Assembly (NCBI GenBank): GCA_944388995.1
Contig: CALXKN010000008.1
Span: 17,160-81,159, forward strand
Source: an uncultured Spirochaetota bacterium
GTDB taxonomy: Bacteria > Spirochaetota > Spirochaetia > JAFGXN01
Length of the DNA stretch: 64,000 nucleotides
Direction: 5' to 3'
This document shows, in pieces, positions 7,154 to 64,000 of the stretch. Position 1 is the stretch's first letter. Each line of letters opens with the position of its first letter. A program made the position numbers and the translations under genes. The notes beneath the pieces were generated by a model that did no database searches, was not told where the DNA came from, and was given only the letters and a program-made list of their open reading frames with translations.

Positions 7154-7795
7154 ATGGGAATCATTGCTAAAAAGAAAAAAGACAAAAAAAGTTTTCAAAC
7201 CGTTTTGAAGGAATTTCCGTCCGAAGTGAAAAAAAATTGGAAAATGAAGACGGCGATTTTGATGATTGCACCGATTGCGCTGCTGATCGATCAGATTACA
7301 AAATCGTTGGTCGTCCGCTTCATTCCGCTTTACGGTTCGCTTTGGGGCGATCCTTACGAAGGGATTCTGCGCATTATTCACGTCCGCAATACGGCGATCG
7401 CTTTCGGTTTGGGACGCGGTTTTGCCGACGAGGTGAAAGCGGTTCTGTTTATTCTGCTGCCGCTGATCATCGTCGTCGCGCTGATTGTTTATTCACTTTA
7501 CAAAAACGAACAGCCGCTTTATCAGCGGATTGCGTTTGCGCTGATTATCGGCGGCGGTTTGGGAAATCTGACGGACCGGATTTTCCGGCCCGGAAACGTC
7601 GTTGATTTTGTTGACACGGTTTGGTTCGGTATCGACGCGCTGCGCGATATTCCGCTTCTCAAGCTGCTGTCGTATGAACGGTGGCCGACCTGGAATTTTG
7701 CCGACGCCTGCGTTGTCGCCGCCGTCGCCATTCTTTTGGTCGGAATGATTGCCGAAGAAATTCAAATGAAGAAAAAAAAGAAACGGCCGGCTTAA
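7154..7795 (+). CDS. lspA: lipoprotein signal peptidase II
   Basis: NTAIAFGLG...GGGLGNLTDRI...VVDFVD...WPTWNFADA motifs. The ATG at 7154 follows AGGAG at 7144-7148. The track start at 7127 overlaps the upstream gene. Confidence 0.85.
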   Translation: MGIIAKKKKDKKSFQTVLKEFPSEVKKNWKMKTAILMIAPIALLIDQITKSLVVRFIPLYGSLWGDPYEGILRIIHVRNTAIAFGLGRGFADEVKAVLFILLPLIIVVALIVYSLYKNEQPLYQRIAFALIIGGGLGNLTDRIFRPGNVVDFVDTVWFGIDALRDIPLLKLLSYERWPTWNFADACVVAAVAILLVGMIAEEIQMKKKKKRPA

Positions 7796-55224: not shown

Positions 55225-55253
55225 ATAGTAAAAGAAAGCCGCCGTCCTGTCAA
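55225..55253 (-). promoter_or_regulatory. sigma70-type promoter abutting the start codon of the SBP gene (leaderless geometry)
   Basis: On the minus strand the sequence is TTGACA, 17 nt, TACTAT, GGCGGC, then ATG (55218). No Shine-Dalgarno is present. Confidence 0.5.
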
Positions 55254-55254
55254 C

Positions 55255-55421
55255 CTTTTCGTTTTTTGGGCGCGCGCCCCTGCGGGGCGCCGGGCTTTCC
55301 GCTGCAATTCGCAGCCTCCCTGCGCCTTCACCGCGGCAAAGCTGCCGCTTTGCCCTGCGCCTTCTCTCCGTCGGCAGCTCATTTCCGCTTCAATCCCTCG
55401 CGCCTTCGGCAAGGTGCTGCG
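55255..55421. repeat. GC-rich structured repeat, copy A (167 bp)
   Basis: Identical to 56426..56591 apart from one extra T. It contains the hairpins GCGCCCC-TGC-GGGGCGC, GCTGC-AATTC-GCAGC and GCGGCA-AAGC-TGCCGC, plus internal sub-repeats (TTTCCGCTnCAAT, CCTGCGCCTTC). Confidence 0.9.
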
Positions 55422-55631
55422 GAAATCGGCATTTTATTGTTTTAGTGTAAAAATGGGAACTTCCGAAAACAGTCAACCGTTTTTCGGAAAAATAACTGCC
55501 CTAAACGTATTTTTGTGTTATAATAACTCCAATAAAAATTTCGTATGGCAAACACAGCAAAAGCAAAACCCGAAAAAAACGCCGATTAAAACCGGAGCGG
55601 AAGATTCGGGAGAAACTTGGAGCGATCGGGT

Positions 55632-56304: not shown

Positions 56305-56425
56305 AGCGGAGGCGCGAAACAACTGAGTCCGGTATGAAAGTAGAAGAAATGGGAGCGAAAACTCTTTCAATCGCCACTGATTCTGCCAGCATCTTTACAT
56401 TTGGCTCCGCCCCCCCTCGCTGAAT

Positions 56426-56591
56426 CTTTTCGTTTTTTGGGCGCGCGCCCCTGCGGGGCGCCGGGCTTTCCGCTGCAATTCGCAGCCTCCCGCGCCTTCA
56501 CCGCGGCAAAGCTGCCGCTTTGCCCTGCGCCTTCTCTCCGTCGGCAGCTCATTTCCGCTTCAATCCCTCGCGCCTTCGGCAAGGTGCTGCG
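56426..56591. repeat. GC-rich structured repeat, copy B (166 bp)
   Basis: A direct repeat of 55255..55421 in the same orientation, on the other side of the MNT/HEPN pair. Confidence 0.9.
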
Positions 56592-56655
56592 AAAGAGGCG
56601 TCTGAAAACTATAAATATGAGAACAATCTCATTTAAACCTCATCCATTTTTATCT

Positions 56656-59541
56656 TCAGCAGAAATGCGCCATATCGCGCGGATAATACTTGCAGTCGTG
56701 CAGTTCCGTGTCGTCAAGCCCCAGCGCCTTTACCAGGGCAGCAGACGCTATGCACCAGTACCCGCGGTACTGGTTCTTTTTCAAGTCAAATTTTGTTATA
56801 AGCCCATCAGTCTTCGTGTGAATCCACTGTCTTTTAAGATACCGTTTTAACCGCTCAACAGCCGCCGCTTTATTCTCTTTTGAAAGCAGTACCACCTCAT
56901 ATACCGCATTGGAATATTTCGGACAGCAGAGCTTTTCCGTGCGTATCTGCCAGGATGAGTCCAGCGTCTGCATAAGGAAATCCAGATAAAAATCCCGCTG
57001 TTCCGATTTTTGTAACAATTTTCGATAGTCATCCAGAAATTCAGTCCTGTTAAAAAGCATAATCAAGTACAGAACAGTTTCCATATCTTCATAATTATCA
57101 TTGCCGTCCTGTGCGTCTATCAAATGACGCAAAATCAGGTCTACTTCGGGAAGCAGCTCATGCATATCTAGCCCTAAGGAATATCCTGTATAAAATTTGT
57201 AAAATGCATAAGTATATATTTGATATTTAAACGCTCTTATGTCCGATTCTGCCTGATGTTCATCAGTCTCAATATTATGATGATGATACGTTTGCAGTAT
57301 TTCTTTCAGCTTTTGGGAATCTTTCTTGAATCTTTCGTCAAAATATTCCTGGGGTTTGACTTTATCCCTCATCATTCTTACCCGGGGCGGAAGTTTTTCC
57401 CGCTCCTCCTCCGTAAGAAATTGCGACAGTTCAACTAAAAAGGGCTCTATAAACTCCGACATGAGTTTCGCTTTATTCCCGGCTGAGTGATCATAAGGTA
57501 TTTCAATTGCCGATGTCCGCCGTTTCTCATCCTTCCACAAGCGTCCTATTTTAATAAATGAACCGCCTTTCTCAAATATGTACAACGATATAATCAGTGT
57601 GCAGTCTTCATACTCACATTCTATATAATCTTGCTCCCCCAAGCAGTAATCTCTGTAGGTAAGATTCCTCAAAGTGGTTATTATCCAGGGTATCCACTCT
57701 TTTTTGATGACAACACTATCCCATGACTGCCATGACCCGGTACCGAAACGGCTGCCGGTTCTGGTGTTGATTCGTAGTTCGCCTTTGGGACTCCAGGGCG
57801 TGGGAAGTTTTTTCCGTTCTTCTTCAGGAAGAAATTGTGACAAGGCCACTAAGAAGGGTTCTATAAATTCCGACATGATTTTCAAGTCGTTGTCCGATTC
57901 TTCAAAATTAAATTCGAAACGGGTATAACGCCACTTTGATGTCAGGGTATAACTCTGCTCATTTTTTGCATGCCAAGGAAAATAAGGTATTTCAAGTGCC
58001 GGCGATATCTTCTTTTCATCCTTCCACATGGGAAATATTTTTATATAGGAATACCCATCCCCTATAGGACAGATACTTAATGTTAATTGGCACGTTCCCC
58101 ATTTATTTATGATGCTTTCAACTCCTGTTTGATAATTATCAACACTAAGATTTCTCAATGTGCTTATTATCCAGGGTATCCGGTTTTTTTGTATAACAAT
58201 ACTTTTCTGCTGCCCGCCGCCGAATGTACCGGTTCTTTTTCCGTTAATCCGTAATTCATCGTTATCTAATTCCTCGAAGCTGTATTCAAAATCGGCATTC
58301 AGAGTTTTTTTGCTTTGATATTTTGTTATCTTCTCTATTTTGGCTACTATCGATTCGTCGTCCGACTTATCGGTTTCGCCTGCATACCAATCTTTGCCTT
58401 CGAGCCATACCCCGAACCAGAAAGGAAGATCCCCCCAAGGTCTTTGACAGAGTTCTTTCTTTTCGTTGACACTCCAGGGGGGCGACAGTTTACCCCTTTC
58501 TTCTTCCGTGAGAAACTGCGACAATGCAACCAGAAACGGCTCTATAAATTCCGACATTAATTTTGTTTCTTTCCGGGATACATAGGGTATTTCAATATTC
58601 CATGAACTCTTATTTTCATTTTTCCAGACAGGATAAATTTTGATATAGGAATAATCAAAGGGTACTACATTTATAATAAAACTTAAATTACAGTAACCGT
58701 ATTCATATACGAGAGTTTGCGGGGTGTTATAATCGTCGATAGTGGCATTTCTTAGTGTGGTAATGATCAAAGGTATCCACGCTTTTTTTATGATAATACT
58801 TTCCCATTGTCCCCTGCCGAATGAATCTGTTCGCTTTGCATTGATTTCCAACTCGTCATCATTTAATTCTTCATTGTCAGCTTTTTCCTCAAAATAAAAT
58901 TCGAAATGAACATTCCCGCCCTTACTGATCAGGTATTCTTTTTCTGCCAGTCCGTATTGTGTTATACCGGTCATTGCTTTGAAAAAATTGAGGGAACCGC
59001 TTTCCTTATCGGCAAAAATGATGTTCTGTTTTTTGTTTTCCCTCCAGGGAGGCGGAAGTTGTGTTCTTTCTTCTTCGGTAAGGAATTGTGCCAATTCAAC
59101 CAAAACAGGTTCGATAAATTCCGCCATTAACCTGCTTTTATCCCAGGGTAGATATGGTATTTCAATAAACGGTGTCGTTTTTTCCTTCGGTTCCTTCCAT
59201 ATGGGCATTATTTGAAGGGTCGCATAATCTTTGGCAGATGGTAAAAACTCCAGATTGACTTGACATTCTTCATATTCGTGAACGATATGTCTGTTCCAAA
59301 TCCCTTCCGGAAAGTTGATGTCGTAATCCTCAAAAGGAAGGGTTCTCAGTGTGGTGATAATCCGGGAAATCCACGCTTTTTTTATGACGATACAGTAATA
59401 CAAAGGCATACGTTCCGCTTCATCCAACAATGGAAAGGTTATTTTTTCGAAAATCCGTATTTCGTCGTTGTCCGATTCCTCAAAATGAAATTCAAAGGTA
59501 TCGGATATTTCGGCATCTCCCCTTCTGCCTGTAATGAACAT
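56656..59541 (-). CDS. 961-aa fusion protein: four tandem copies of an unrecognised ~150-190 aa module plus a C-terminal PoNi-like (DUF1910/DUF1911) immunity domain
   Basis: Repeats lie at about aa 15-166, 212-356, 417-523 (+541-583) and 588-719. They share FEFxFEExDNDELRIN, IIKKAWIPxIITTLRN, YIKIxPxWKDEKK, IEIPY and KLMSEFIEPFLVxLSQFLTEEERxKLPPPW. Residues 723-961 begin MRDKVKPQEYF and end YRGYWCIASAALVKALGLDDTELHDCKYYPRDMAHFC. Confidence 0.65.
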   Translation of the reverse strand: MFITGRRGDAEISDTFEFHFEESDNDEIRIFEKITFPLLDEAERMPLYYCIVIKKAWISRIITTLRTLPFEDYDINFPEGIWNRHIVHEYEECQVNLEFLPSAKDYATLQIMPIWKEPKEKTTPFIEIPYLPWDKSRLMAEFIEPVLVELAQFLTEEERTQLPPPWRENKKQNIIFADKESGSLNFFKAMTGITQYGLAEKEYLISKGGNVHFEFYFEEKADNEELNDDELEINAKRTDSFGRGQWESIIIKKAWIPLIITTLRNATIDDYNTPQTLVYEYGYCNLSFIINVVPFDYSYIKIYPVWKNENKSSWNIEIPYVSRKETKLMSEFIEPFLVALSQFLTEEERGKLSPPWSVNEKKELCQRPWGDLPFWFGVWLEGKDWYAGETDKSDDESIVAKIEKITKYQSKKTLNADFEYSFEELDNDELRINGKRTGTFGGGQQKSIVIQKNRIPWIISTLRNLSVDNYQTGVESIINKWGTCQLTLSICPIGDGYSYIKIFPMWKDEKKISPALEIPYFPWHAKNEQSYTLTSKWRYTRFEFNFEESDNDLKIMSEFIEPFLVALSQFLPEEERKKLPTPWSPKGELRINTRTGSRFGTGSWQSWDSVVIKKEWIPWIITTLRNLTYRDYCLGEQDYIECEYEDCTLIISLYIFEKGGSFIKIGRLWKDEKRRTSAIEIPYDHSAGNKAKLMSEFIEPFLVELSQFLTEEEREKLPPRVRMMRDKVKPQEYFDERFKKDSQKLKEILQTYHHHNIETDEHQAESDIRAFKYQIYTYAFYKFYTGYSLGLDMHELLPEVDLILRHLIDAQDGNDNYEDMETVLYLIMLFNRTEFLDDYRKLLQKSEQRDFYLDFLMQTLDSSWQIRTEKLCCPKYSNAVYEVVLLSKENKAAAVERLKRYLKRQWIHTKTDGLITKFDLKKNQYRGYWCIASAALVKALGLDDTELHDCKYYPRDMAHFC

Positions 59542-60642: not shown

Positions 60643-60700
60643 TCCGTACACACCCATTGATGTTGTCAAAGAACTCCTTCTGTACGGAGATAGGGGGAGG
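60643..60700. repeat. 58-bp junction repeat, copy 1
   Basis: TCCGTACACACCCATTGATGTTGTCAAAGAACTCCTTCTGTACGGAGATAGGGGGAGG is identical to 63943..64000. It contains the 8-bp inverted arms TCCGTACA and TGTACGGA separated by 30 nt. Confidence 0.9.
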
Positions 60701-60701
60701 G

Positions 60702-60929
60702 TTATTCAAAAGTTATTACCATATGCGAACCTGCCGTTTTTTCGGTTACTTTCTGTATAATCTCTTTTTTGTCATCTTCAGTTAATGGCTCGTTTTCTGG
60801 AACAAGCCAATTTTTCATTGAACTTTTATAACAGACAAAACCGCCTACTATCATTTCGCCTGCGATTCTCGCAGTTCTGCCATCGAGTTCTACATCTATG
60901 TATGTGTTTGTTCCGGTTATTTTTGTCAT
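60702..60929 (-). CDS. small hypothetical protein (75 aa) in the immunity-gene array
   Basis: The ORF lies 9 nt downstream of the DUF600 gene. Its first 10 codons are duplicated at 62353..62324. Confidence 0.5.
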   Translation of the reverse strand: MTKITGTNTYIDVELDGRTARIAGEMIVGGFVCYKSSMKNWLVPENEPLTEDDKKEIIQKVTEKTAGSHMVITFE

Positions 60930-61036
60930 ATATTAATCCTATGCATTATCCCATTCGTCTTGAAGAGCCTGATCCCATTCAAAGGTCATATCAAAGTGAC
61001 CGTTCTTTTCAAGGGTGTAAATAGCTTTGTTCCATT
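60899..61036. repeat. 138-bp segmental duplication, copy 1
   Basis: Matches 62323..62460. The first 64 bp are identical and the rest is roughly 85 percent identical by eye. It spans the 3' end of a DUF600 gene, the spacer and the 5' end of the 75-aa gene. Confidence 0.85.
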
Positions 61037-61271
61037 GTGCAAAATGTAACTCTTTTGCACTATTATGAAATTTTATTAAATCAATTTTTGTTTCTCGATT
61101 AAGTGCTAAGTTTAAAGCATTTTTCCATTCTCCATTAATCTGATATTTTGCATTCGTACCAATATATTTATCACTACATTCAATATTCAGTTCAATTTTA
61201 TCCCAAGAGGAATCAATACTATCATTCAATTGCGAACCAATATTTTTATATATATCTTCAATATTTTTCAT
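60939..61271 (-). CDS. DUF600 / YezG / EsaG-type immunity protein
   Basis: 110 aa, starting 11 nt after the nuclease-domain stop with an AGGAG RBS. The overall pattern (acidic, WDKIELNIE...W..A.Y.L...G.F...F) fits DUF600 antitoxins of EsaD/YeeF nucleases. It is a paralog of 62363..62686. Confidence 0.7.
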   Translation of the reverse strand: MKNIEDIYKNIGSQLNDSIDSSWDKIELNIECSDKYIGTNAKYQINGEWKNALNLALNRETKIDLIKFHNSAKELHFAQWNKAIYTLEKNGHFDMTFEWDQALQDEWDNA

Positions 61272-61282
61272 AAATACTCCTA

Positions 61283-61648
61283 TTAATTTAAGAAGAACAA
61301 ATTTTCTGTTTTTTCTATTTTTCCATCCGATGTTTTTATAATGTATGTTACATCAAAATCTGTCGGTCTTAGATTATCAGCATAGTTTATTTTTATATCA
61401 ACTTCAACCTTTTTTCCCTCTGAAAGTGCATCGTTCCATTTTTTTTCCATGGTTTTCCATTCACCATTATTTAGTGTGGCGGTTTGTGGAACATAATTTA
61501 TTTGTTCTCCAGGACCATTGAAAATTCTTGCAATAATATGTCCGCCCTGGTCATCACCTTTAATACCATCTTTTATATCAACTGATTTTCCTTGTTGATA
61601 AACATTTCTGTCTTTTGTTTCAAGTTTTAATTCTCCGCTTACTTTGTT
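61283..61648 (-). pseudogene. orphan, start-less C-terminal nuclease toxin domain (EsaD/YeeF-type, Endonuclease_NS_2-like)
   Basis: Manual translation gives NKVSGELKLETKDRNVYQQGKSVDIKDGIKGDDQGGHIIARIFNGPGEQINYVPQTATLNNGEWKTMEKKWNDALSEGKKVEVDIKINYADNLRPTDFDVTYIIKTSDGKIEKTENLFFLN*. The frame opens after a TAA at 61649-61651 and has no ATG/GTG/TTG until codon 68, so it is absent from the ORF track. Confidence 0.7.
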
Positions 61649-61731: not shown

Positions 61732-62262
61732 CTAACTGTCCCAGATTTCCTTAAATTTTAAACCTTTGATACTGTTTTTCTTAACAATATCTATAAACTC
61801 ATCTGTTACAAAATAATCTCGAATAATTAATTGATTTTGTAGTTTAACTTGAAAAAGAGGTGGATAATTGTTTTCCTTAAAATAATATTGCTCAACACCT
61901 AAAATATCATTCTCAAAATACTTATATTTAGTTTTTTTTCGATCTAAGCAGTCCAAAACAGTTAAATTATTTAATAGTACAAAATCGTCATTAAGCGGAA
62001 CAAATCTTATATTTATTTGAGAAATGTCAGAAAGTACTGCCATAAATTTTTTATTTATGAAGAATCCTCTACAATCATAACATTCACAAATATCCCCTGC
62101 AGGATTATTAGAATCTCTATCGTATTCTAATTGAAAATCAGAAGGAATGCTTATTTCTATACCTTTATTAAACTGACGTAAAATTTTTCTATCAGTTTCT
62201 TCGTTTTTTATATAGCATCCTTTGTAATTATCAATATCTGTTTCTAAAATGTATATTTTCAT
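61732..62262 (-). CDS. hypothetical 176-aa protein, immunity-protein-like by context (family not firmly recognised)
   Basis: An AT-rich ORF within the immunity array. Its size and composition resemble DUF1629/Imm-type proteins, but no diagnostic motif was identified. Confidence 0.45.
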   Translation of the reverse strand: MKIYILETDIDNYKGCYIKNEETDRKILRQFNKGIEISIPSDFQLEYDRDSNNPAGDICECYDCRGFFINKKFMAVLSDISQINIRFVPLNDDFVLLNNLTVLDCLDRKKTKYKYFENDILGVEQYYFKENNYPPLFQVKLQNQLIIRDYFVTDEFIDIVKKNSIKGLKFKEIWDS

Positions 62263-62353: not shown

Positions 62354-62460
62354 ATATTAATCCTATGCATTATCCCATTCGTCTTGGAGAGTTTGATCCC
62401 ATTCAAATGTCATATCAAAATGACCATTCCTTTCAAGAGAGTAAACAGCTTTGTTCCATT
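62323..62460. repeat. 138-bp segmental duplication, copy 2
   Basis: See 60899..61036. Confidence 0.85.
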
Positions 62461-62686
62461 TATGCTCAGGCGACATAGATTCTTGAAGTTCAAAAACGCT
62501 ATCCATTAAAGTATTTACAGTTAATAAAGGAAACTTTAATTCTTTTTTTTCAAACGATGATAAAGTATATTCTGCCTGAAATGAACACATTTTATTTAGA
62601 CTTGATTCTATTTTTACAGTCACTTTTTCCCATTTACCGGAAATATTATCTTGAACCGCCTTGCCTAATTCTTTATATAAATCCAT
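62363..62686 (-). CDS. DUF600 / YezG / EsaG-type immunity protein, second paralog
   Basis: 107 aa. The C-terminal KWNKAVYSLERNGHFDMTFEWDQTLQDEWDNA is nearly identical to the C-terminus of 60939..61271. Confidence 0.7.
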   Translation of the reverse strand: MDLYKELGKAVQDNISGKWEKVTVKIESSLNKMCSFQAEYTLSSFEKKELKFPLLTVNTLMDSVFELQESMSPEHKWNKAVYSLERNGHFDMTFEWDQTLQDEWDNA

Positions 62687-62732
62687 AGCATCTCCATTAA
62701 TTGTTGAATATTTTTTTGAATAGTTGGCTCAT

Positions 62733-63842
62733 TTATTTCTCTTTATTTAAAATAAACAGATACTCAGAGACGTGTATATTACGGTTATTCAAATTTCTGC
62801 TTCCCCGGAATGTATTATAAGTCATTTCAACGGTTTTCAGTTTTCCGTAGTGTTCCAGCATTGTTTTCATTTGCTCAAAAGTAATAAATCCTTCAGAATT
62901 ATAAGAGATAATGACAAACTTTGAATCAATTTTATCTATGATTTTTTCCATGGATTTTAAGGCTGAATAAGGTTTGTTGAATTCCGAGCGGTTCCAATCC
63001 TGAGTTATCCCTGAAACTTTACTGATTTCAGCATCCAGCCTGTTCTTTATGATAAGATTCAGCATAAAATAATTTGAACCATAGGGATGCTGGTTATACG
63101 GGGGATCCAGATAAGTAATATCTATTTTTTTTAATTCCCCGGCAAGTTCCACAGCATCTTTTTTATAGATTTTAACCTTTGAATTGAAATTGCTTAAAAC
63201 CGGCTCTTTCAGTTCTATTTTTCCAAAAATGCGGGTTAAAGCGTTTTTCCCGGCAGCGCCGAAACATCCGATTCCGGTATTTTTGTCCTTGTAAAACCCT
63301 TTGAAAACCCCGCTTGTATTGACATGAACCGAAGCCTCCGTTACGAGCGGCGCTAAAAAAAATTTTTTCATGTCTTCTTCCTGCACCACTTTATCAATCA
63401 GACTGCGGTAAGTGTCGATTAACAGAGCGTTCTCATGGGTATAAAAAACCCTTTCTCCTCTTTGAATATTTCCGTCATCCTGAGGGGCATAATTTTTTGT
63501 GATAATTCTCGGTTCTTTTTTGCTGCGGCACATTTCTTCTATTATTGATTTATATTCCCGCCATTTTTCATGCGGAAAATCTTTTTTGTCAGTCAGATAG
63601 CATTCATTGATGAGGCGGGAATATTCTTCCAGATCATTGGCAATTAAAACACTGCTGTATTTTTTCAGCATCCGGGCAACAATTCCCGAACCGGAGAAAA
63701 TATCCGCACAAACAAGTTTTTCTTTTCCCAATAAACCGGCAATTTTTTTGACTTCTTCTTCTATATTCCTGATAAGCTGCCGTTTGTTCCTGATATAAGT
63801 AATGATCTGTGCAGTAAGATATTCTTTATTTTCTTCTTTCAT
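62733..63842 (-). CDS. N6-adenine DNA methyltransferase (SAM motif then DPPY), no cognate endonuclease visible
   Basis: DIFSGSGIVARML (FxGxG, motif I) near aa 48 and YLDPPYNQHPYGSNY (motif IV) near aa 244. Length is 369 aa. Confidence 0.8.
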   Translation of the reverse strand: MKEENKEYLTAQIITYIRNKRQLIRNIEEEVKKIAGLLGKEKLVCADIFSGSGIVARMLKKYSSVLIANDLEEYSRLINECYLTDKKDFPHEKWREYKSIIEEMCRSKKEPRIITKNYAPQDDGNIQRGERVFYTHENALLIDTYRSLIDKVVQEEDMKKFFLAPLVTEASVHVNTSGVFKGFYKDKNTGIGCFGAAGKNALTRIFGKIELKEPVLSNFNSKVKIYKKDAVELAGELKKIDITYLDPPYNQHPYGSNYFMLNLIIKNRLDAEISKVSGITQDWNRSEFNKPYSALKSMEKIIDKIDSKFVIISYNSEGFITFEQMKTMLEHYGKLKTVEMTYNTFRGSRNLNNRNIHVSEYLFILNKEK

Positions 63843-63877
63843 GGCTGTAAAGATTTATATTGTTCCAAATTTCCGGT

Positions 63878-64000
63878 TTATTCTATGCTTTTTGACAGAC
63901 CTTTATACTCAGTATCCCTCTCCGCAAAAATCAACCCGGATTTCCGTACACACCCATTGATGTTGTCAAAGAACTCCTTCTGTACGGAGATAGGGGGAGG
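63878..64000 (-). CDS. 3' end of a gene whose body lies beyond the window edge; its last 40 codons include the 58-bp repeat
   Basis: Only one minus-strand frame is open from 64000: PPPISVQKEFFDNINGCVRKSGLIFAERDTEYKGLSKSIE*. It stops 35 nt before the methyltransferase ATG. Confidence 0.45.
   Translation of the reverse strand, partial: PPPISVQKEFFDNINGCVRKSGLIFAERDTEYKGLSKSIE
63943..64000. repeat. 58-bp junction repeat, copy 2 (may extend past the window)
   Basis: Identical to 60643..60700. Confidence 0.9.

Follow-up and report, generated by a model that had tools for sequence, protein, structure and literature searches.

A solitary D12-class adenine methylase in a toxin-immunity island of a Treponema-like spirochaete, probably left behind by an EcoRI-type restriction-modification pair

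The window analysed here, a stretch of 64,000 nucleotides from a gut Treponema-like spirochaete, carries close to its end the gene for an N6-adenine DNA methylase (Table 1). The protein matches the D12 class profile of Pfam (PF02086) over residues 16-324 with 65.3 bits (cut-off 22; E 9e-18) and the Type II MTase model of PADLOC (MTase_II) with 4e-118. Motif I reads D47-IFSGSG-53 (FxGxG, here F49-S-G-S-G53) and motif IV reads D246-PPY-249, both numbered on the window translation and both invariant across the family. They stand in alpha-group order, with motif I followed by about 190 residues which contain the target-recognition region and then by motif IV. An earlier note on this DNA had described a 369-aa N6-adenine methyltransferase with DIFSGSG and DPPY in an alpha/Dam-like order, and the profile match and the motifs confirm this description. 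Because the methylase belongs to the D12 family, its chemistry follows as AdoMet-dependent methyl transfer onto adenine N6. The named homologues are annotated as "DNA adenine methylase" and come from Treponema. An AF2 model of modest quality (pLDDT 64) has E. coli Dam as its top Foldseek matches (E 5e-5), at low confidence since the TM values are only 0.35-0.47. The PDB sequence search gave no match to the methylase, neither with the single sequence nor with a profile, and none of the Imm family profiles of Pfam matched it. A scan for promoters and terminators returned the same counts as in shuffled sequence.

Table 1. Features of the methylase region, in window coordinates.
Feature	Coordinates	Strand	Remarks
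Upstream 58-bp repeat copy	63943..64000	minus	Tail of a duplicated segment of ~311 bp, with Imm74 just past the window
Methylase 5' leader, presumed promoter region	63843..63942	minus	From junction alignments (blastn)
Methylase ORF	62733..63842	minus	369 aa; D12-class (alpha-group, Dam-like) N6-adenine DNA methylase
R stub	62697..62732	minus	12-codon ORF including the stop codon, MSQLFKKIFNN
YezG-like (DUF600) gene YezG107	62363..62686	minus	107 aa; PF04634 23.4 bits, cut-off 21.7
Imm11-like gene	61732..62262	minus	Below the Pfam cut-off
Endonuclease_NS_2 toxin C-terminal fragment	61283..61450	minus	55 aa
Second YezG-like gene	60939..61271	minus	Just below the Pfam cut-off
Downstream repeat copy of ~311 bp	60643..60953	minus	Imm74 (60702..60929) and 58-bp tail (60643-60700)

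On its downstream side the methylase is followed on the same strand by the YezG-like gene YezG107, which starts 46 nt past the methylase stop; this is the DUF600 gene that the earlier note had placed at that distance, and the match to PF04634 bears it out. The genes between 60939 and 62262 are orphan toxin-immunity cassettes, and the array continues with Imm74 and then with two PoNi proteins. Truncated and chimeric toxin C-termini are present in the island. An identical Imm74 protein and a copy of the Imm11-like cassette with 99.5% identity recur behind a full-length AHH toxin of 286 aa; this locus adjoins an eCIS gene and lies on contigs of 720 kb from the same cohorts. Imm74 and the Imm11-like cassette also recur at locus L104, one gene away from an intact pair of methylase and restriction endonuclease.

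Two copies of a duplicated segment of about 311 bp, each consisting of 25 bp, Imm74, and 58 bp, flank a 3.3-kb block that holds the methylase. The 58-bp tail of the upstream copy (63943-64000) is an exact repeat of 60643-60700. The sequence beyond the window was accessible through contig L001, which was found by exact-protein look-up, is 99.9% identical to the window, and reaches 7.5 kb further; its positions 7277-7586 match window positions 60953-60643 at 93%. The true upstream gene is a second copy of Imm74. The earlier note had assumed an upstream gene which carries the 58-bp repeat in its coding tail, and had considered a restriction enzyme or a toxin with a trafficking domain for this neighbour. 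The repeat is there, and a stop codon at 63878 does precede the methylase ATG by 35 nt, but the supposed gene is a 43-codon ORF across the repeat which has a TTG start and was not called by the gene caller, and the 58 bp do not encode the end of a toxin. Beyond the upstream Imm74 follow an Imm11-like gene, an ORF that is a chimera of a YezG N-terminus and AHH, a 212-aa Endonuclease_NS_2 protein, and then transporter genes; no restriction enzyme is encoded in the 7.5 kb past the window end, and neither is a full-length toxin that has a trafficking domain. At loci L101 and L104, the sequence after Imm74 runs on as window positions 60642-60576. The leader of the methylase is common to its sister alleles up to about 63941 (about 100 nt 5' of the ATG) and to relatives with a restriction-modification pair up to 63905. 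On its left side, the methylase block has its recombination breakpoint at 63942/63943.

In the closest relatives of the methylase, all from other genomes, an ORF of 241 aa begins on the same strand 0-18 nt past the methylase stop. This protein, referred to as R below (and the methylase as M), matches the EcoRI family PF02963 at about 1e-13 as well as REase_II of PADLOC, and aligns with EcoRI crystal-structure sequences at 6e-6; NCBIfam has no model matching the methylase or R. The PD..ExK segment of EcoRI, which is catalytic, is kept in R (PDGGI, AEIK/AEAK), and so is GNAIER, which contacts AATT. The earlier note had named a canonical type II restriction enzyme as a neighbour that would speak against a link to toxins. 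Such an enzyme does exist in the relatives, but its gene lies downstream of the methylase rather than upstream.

The relatives with R include, by amino acid identity of the methylase, L015 (93%), L098 (91%), L100 (89%), and L104 (86%), and further L016 (85%), L017 (80%), and L018/L019 (75%). L015 is from a MAG of Candidatus Gallitreponema excrementavium. R accompanies every relative at 86-93% identity and 7/9 distinct relatives at 75-93%; between 75% and 85%, two of the six distinct relatives are without an intact R. In the clade at 61-73% identity, all 17 distinct methylases are solitary. For 69 distinct methylases from genome or metagenome loci, enough downstream sequence was available: 54 are solitary, as are most family members at 44-73% identity, and 13 occur with an EcoRI-like R, which is the sole recurrent neighbour there. 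An EcoRI-like R is also found in 46 of the 79 IMG/VR loci of the family, giant-virus MAGs included, and in the distant viral loci the side and orientation of R relative to M vary. A 6-kb plasmid from Paracoccus carries a methylase at 44% identity, annotated as DNA adenine methylase, together with an annotated EcoRI family type II restriction endonuclease. Scanning a genome collection with peptide patterns that proved too specific returned only three loci. Because the pairing of M and R recurs near and far, the methylase family is the modification partner of EcoRI-family nucleases.

In the window, the TAA of the methylase is directly followed by ATGAGCCAAC (62732-62723), which in a junction alignment that also included L017 matches the opening 10 nt of R from L015 and L016 without a mismatch. 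Past 62723 the window is abruptly unlike the R genes and switches to the leader of a YezG-like gene, which sets the breakpoint at 62723/62722; the blastn alignments with L015, L016, L098-L100, and L104 all stop at 62723. The end of the resulting stub ORF (62697) is separated by 10 nt from the start of the YezG-like gene. A tblastn search with R found no homologue elsewhere in the 64-kb window, so the earlier description as an orphan methyltransferase without a visible restriction endonuclease holds. Since the 10-nt start of R is kept at the methylase stop and the window has no other R, the deletion took out R where it stood, starting with its 11th nucleotide. The solitary state of the methylase is recent, because the gene keeps the R start codon as a scar. 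Two relatives represent R losses that are independent of the window lineage: a remnant of 30 codons is left of R at L011, and at L009 both R and the neighbouring RmuC gene are gone, in a context that is otherwise 98-99% identical to that of the R-bearing L016.

Sister alleles (P0362, P0363, and others) were taken from the same 90% cluster as the window methylase. They show the same R stub and YezG107 (L113-L119), and upstream of their blocks lie either a 263-aa ORF and an MmeI-family enzyme or an HpaII-like restriction endonuclease. All alleles of the lineage have YezG107 linked to the methylase, whatever the upstream context, and exact-protein look-up found YezG107 only after the methylase. 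The fact that the same junction of M, stub, and YezG107 adjoins differing upstream genes indicates that R was lost once in the window lineage and that the block was moved afterwards by recombination; the linkage between M and YezG107 is due to one deletion junction.

The probable source of the methylase is a mobile type II restriction-modification operon, with M directly preceding the gene for an EcoRI-family endonuclease. In the window lineage, a deletion or recombination took away R from its 11th nucleotide on, and this event fused a 3-codon stub with the leader that precedes YezG107. The M-stub-YezG block was then shuffled by recombination within the polymorphic-toxin immunity island, and the copy in the window ended up between two repeat copies containing Imm74. 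We consider the methylase to be the M half of an EcoRI-type restriction-modification pair which was orphaned by deletion of R, with its position in a toxin-immunity island being due to chance, and assign a probability of about 85% to this reading.

The sequence after the 10 nt kept from R was also considered as the tail of a deleted toxin, with FKKIFNN and its stop codon, the ribosome-binding site, and YezG107 representing the last codons of a removed toxin gene and what followed them. The layout resembles other toxin-YezG junctions. A copy search and the exact-protein look-up found no independent copy of this tail and no YezG107 behind a toxin. That one deletion removed both poisons, R and a toxin, is a weak conjecture.

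Compared with its R-linked relatives, the window methylase has low overall dN/dS values (0.06-0.09), and its reading frame is unbroken. During most of its past, purifying selection acted on the gene. Two of its residues are unusual, R18 (AGG, codon 63791-63789) and R112 (AGA, codon 63509-63507). Glycine is invariant at both positions in 120 homologues, and the window protein is unique at both. From the sister allele P0362 it differs by G18R and G112R only, the DNA showing eight synonymous and two non-synonymous differences. The N-terminal Gly-x-Lys motif (YxGNKR in the family), which has its glycine in P0362, is broken in the window methylase (Y16-I-R18-N-K-R). In a weak hhalign alignment, G18 falls on G12 of KWAGGK in Dam; in alpha-group methylases, the N-terminal motif lines the cofactor pocket. 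With randomly placed replacements, the chance that both hit invariant columns is P = 0.14, and a branch-wise dN/dS analysis gave no clear relaxation on the window branch. The pattern fits a recent relaxation of selection, which it does not prove. Because the invariant glycines are replaced, this copy of the methylase may be inactive or catalytically impaired, for which we see slightly less than even odds, with the two substitutions as the sole basis. The assignment to the D12 family stands despite the broken N-terminal motif.

The recognition site of the methylase probably has an AATT core, as the partner R keeps the AATT-reading GNAIER motif of EcoRI. Methylation of a palindrome with this core would have shielded the genome from the EcoRI-like partner. 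The site is perhaps RAATTY, which is the motif of known orphan D12 methylases from spirochaetes. Orphan type II methyltransferases give RAATTY m6A in 6/6 Spirochaetaceae studied (Blow et al., 2016; PMC4752239). The RAATTY enzymes in the supplement are TDE0706, which is the only type II m6A enzyme of Treponema denticola, Tresu_2158 from T. succinifaciens, Spica_0084, Spiaf_1714, and Spith_1825 from Spirochaeta thermophila, which is annotated as D12 class; T. caldaria is also among the hosts of RAATTY enzymes (PMC4752239). The RAATTY motif has also been reported in Campylobacter jejuni (Murray et al., 2012, PMC3526280; PMC4294202), and the enzyme responsible is annotated as D12 class (PMC4294202). 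By analogy, the window methylase is predicted as a likely member of this spirochaete/Campylobacter family of RAATTY orphans. A homologue search that started from the distant family member L046 returned no named protein from T. denticola, T. succinifaciens, or Campylobacter. In a test for palindrome avoidance, GAATTC and RAATTY came out as not depleted in the window and the R-bearing relatives. CAATTG is low in the window (3 vs. 14.7 expected), an effect that is weak after multiple testing.

The earlier note had offered two readings of the locus, neither of which we consider likely. According to one, the methylase is part of an intact restriction-modification system with its R out of view, past the window or elsewhere in the genome. 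The window does stop 158 nt upstream of the methylase gene, and the part of the genome that was examined amounts to roughly 72 kb. However, the 7.5 kb past the window are made up of toxin-immunity cassettes and transporter genes, and in L015, L016, L017, L098, L100, and L104, R comes immediately after M and in the same orientation. In the window, the R start codon, with 10 nt, is still in place. Furthermore, a methylase possibly crippled by G18R and G112R would be lethal beside an active R. A functional partner out of view is highly improbable. The other reading, which the note called more interesting and in which the methylase acts as an unconventional immunity factor and shields self DNA from a DNA-targeting polymorphic toxin, would be in keeping with its place inside an immunity island, with the tight linkage to a YezG-like gene that every allele of the lineage shows, and with the nuclease nature of the island toxins (AHH, Endonuclease_NS_2). 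Yet both of these domains are non-specific nucleases, with YezG-like, Imm11-like, and Imm74 genes beside them, and no adjacent toxin has a restriction endonuclease fold or a trafficking domain. The methylase family pairs with an EcoRI-like R, the immunity genes of the island are absent from all of the approximately 148 other loci of the family outside the window lineage, and the deletion junction accounts for the linkage to YezG107. The methylase appears to be functionally unconnected with the toxin and immunity genes around it, and a role in protection against a toxin is hardly credible.

A different question is whether the solitary state is itself the functional one. The methylase might be a conserved spirochaete RAATTY orphan with a Dam/CcrM-like role in epigenetic regulation, which is found in the island only incidentally. 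Members of the family are abundant in Treponema-like genomes and for the most part solitary, as exemplified by 17/17 at 61-73% identity; they stand in varied genomic contexts, many of these housekeeping (L009, L013), and a conserved, active RAATTY orphan methyltransferase is described in the Spirochaetaceae literature. Low dN/dS values and the persistence of orphan sister alleles in many samples point in the same direction, and solitary life, being common in the family, may itself be selected. The window gene, however, nests among R-linked relatives (all of those at 86-93%, 7/9 at 75-93%), and the R start codon scar marks its solitary state as recent. Two radical changes at invariant glycines are unexpected in a selected housekeeping enzyme. 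The clade at 61-73% is found at other genomic positions, so that a housekeeping copy distinct from the window gene may exist in the genome. We regard a conserved regulatory orphan as unlikely. An intact M-R module circulates in co-resident Treponema-like populations of the same cohort (L104, L016). Immunity islands might be seen as collections of antidotes, among which the methylase would be kept as a vaccine against this selfish module. If so, the methylase would lessen post-segregational killing and open R-bearing neighbours to the DNA of the strain, and methylase and orphan immunity genes would be retained for one ecological reason. We rate this idea as improbable. On the preferred reading, as M half of a disrupted EcoRI-type pair, the present role could at most be that of a solitary methylase, in epigenetic marking or in protection against incoming copies of the same restriction-modification module.

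The import of the locus beyond annotation is small. It represents a clean and datable origin of an orphan methylase, by a single deletion that has left the R start codon as a scar, and a restriction-modification remnant that was carried along as the cassettes of a polymorphic-toxin immunity island were shuffled. It also draws attention to an abundant and mostly unnamed D12 family from gut and termite-gut metagenomes, present in viral contigs as well, which is tied to EcoRI-family nucleases and would by inference be tied to AATT-core (RAATTY) methylation. The pair of alleles with and without G18R and G112R is a natural test of whether activity of the orphan is needed.

The known enzymes closest in lifestyle are the RAATTY orphans M.TdeV (TDE0706), M.Tsu2489I (Tresu_2158), M.Tca7334II, M.Sth6578II, and M.CjeNI (Cj0208). 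Like these, the window methylase is of the type II m6A class, is solitary without an adjacent R, and comes from a spirochaete; among them, M.Sth6578II and the C. jejuni enzyme are annotated as D12 class. Unlike the RAATTY orphans, the window copy was orphaned recently and still shows the R scar, resides in a toxin-immunity island, and carries G18R and G112R. With the EcoRI and RsrI systems (GAATTC), the relatives of the window methylase share an R of family PF02963 with PD..E-x-K and GNAIER, and the presence of the module on a small plasmid and on viral contigs is as for mobile restriction-modification units. R has 277 aa in EcoRI and 241 aa in the relatives, and is deleted in the window. To our knowledge, M.EcoRI is not of the D12/alpha-group, whereas M is Dam-like here. 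Related specificities are those of MunI, which cuts CAATTG, and ApoI, which cuts RAATTY.

E. coli Dam, T4 Dam, and DpnM (D12, GATC) share the Pfam family and the motif order with the window methylase. Dam provides the best structural matches of the AF2 model, and the xYxGNK of the family aligns with its KWAGGK. Compared with Dam, the window methylase is about 90 aa longer, has about 12% identity, and differs in the target-recognition region; its site presumably differs from the GATC of Dam. Polyimmunity or orphan-cassette loci of polymorphic toxin systems have reportedly been described by Zhang, Iyer and Aravind. The island resembles such loci in having YezG-like, Imm11-like, Imm74, and PoNi genes, truncated or chimeric toxin C-termini, and junction repeats involved in shuffling. 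In contrast to their constituents, the methylase belongs to no Imm family and lacks a cognate toxin, being a passenger that stems from another poison-antidote system. As an orphaned methylase of a restriction-modification pair it is of a well-known kind, and what is unusual is its location and the very clean scar.

The methylase of the window, a 369-aa D12-class N6-adenine enzyme, carries Arg at residues 18 and 112, both of which are Gly (GGA or GGG) in 120 of 120 homologues and in the sister allele P0362. Each of the two Arg codons (see the table) represents a first-position G-to-A change. Presence and absence of R, the 241-aa EcoRI-family restriction endonuclease gene, can be compared directly between two other loci, L016 and L009, which share a genomic context of 98-99% identity. 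In L016 the methylase is followed by R and an RmuC gene, both of which are missing from L009, and 226 bp of the region upstream of the methylase occur a second time after R. The methylase family is also frequent, at 39-57% identity, in viral contigs from IMG/VR (L121-L200), including many giant-virus MAGs; an EcoRI-family nuclease adjoins the methylase in 46 of these 79 loci, in varying orientation.

Under a Markov expectation, several palindromes are scarce over the whole window: CTAG (1 observed, 10.6 expected), GATC (152 vs. 270) and CAATTG (3 vs. 14.7). These low counts hint at other restriction pressures, past or present, for example of a MunI-like type. A MunI-family R-M system adjoins a methylase remnant in locus L011.

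Coordinates of features in and near the window (window positions unless stated otherwise)
Feature	Position	Strand	Basis or remark
Direct repeat pair, ~173 bp	55252-55424 and 56423-56594		repeat comparison
961-aa PoNi protein	56656..59541	-	domain matches and repeats
PoNi paralogue, 206 aa	59781..60401		
Matches to L101-L110	60576-60940 and 61736-62326		720-kb contigs, same cohorts
R112 codon AGA	63507-63509		
R18 codon AGG	63789-63791		
'AHH' ORF, 142 aa	L001 6316-6744		just outside window

The 961-aa protein is a multi-domain immunity protein in which four tandem repeats of ~190 aa precede the domains PoNi_N and PoNi_C. Between its gene and an SBP_bac_5 gene, two direct repeats (98-99% identity between the copies), which contain the GC-rich palindrome GGGCGCGCGCCCCTGCGGGGCGCC, flank ~1 kb and may mark the border of an island or form a small repeat element.

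On L001, the near-identical contigs which extend beyond the window, a YezG-like N-terminus (MADLYKELG…, resembling that of the 107-aa YezG-like protein YezG107) and a C-terminus of the AHH nuclease type are fused in the 'AHH' ORF, a recombination chimera of the sort typical for orphan-cassette arrays. In L101-L110, a full-length 286-aa AHH toxin, the gene of which lies immediately downstream of an eCIS_core gene, is followed by an Imm74 protein identical to that of the window and by an Imm11-like cassette with 99.5% identity. This toxin may be a payload of a contractile injection system, and the island in the window may hold orphan copies of its immunity genes.
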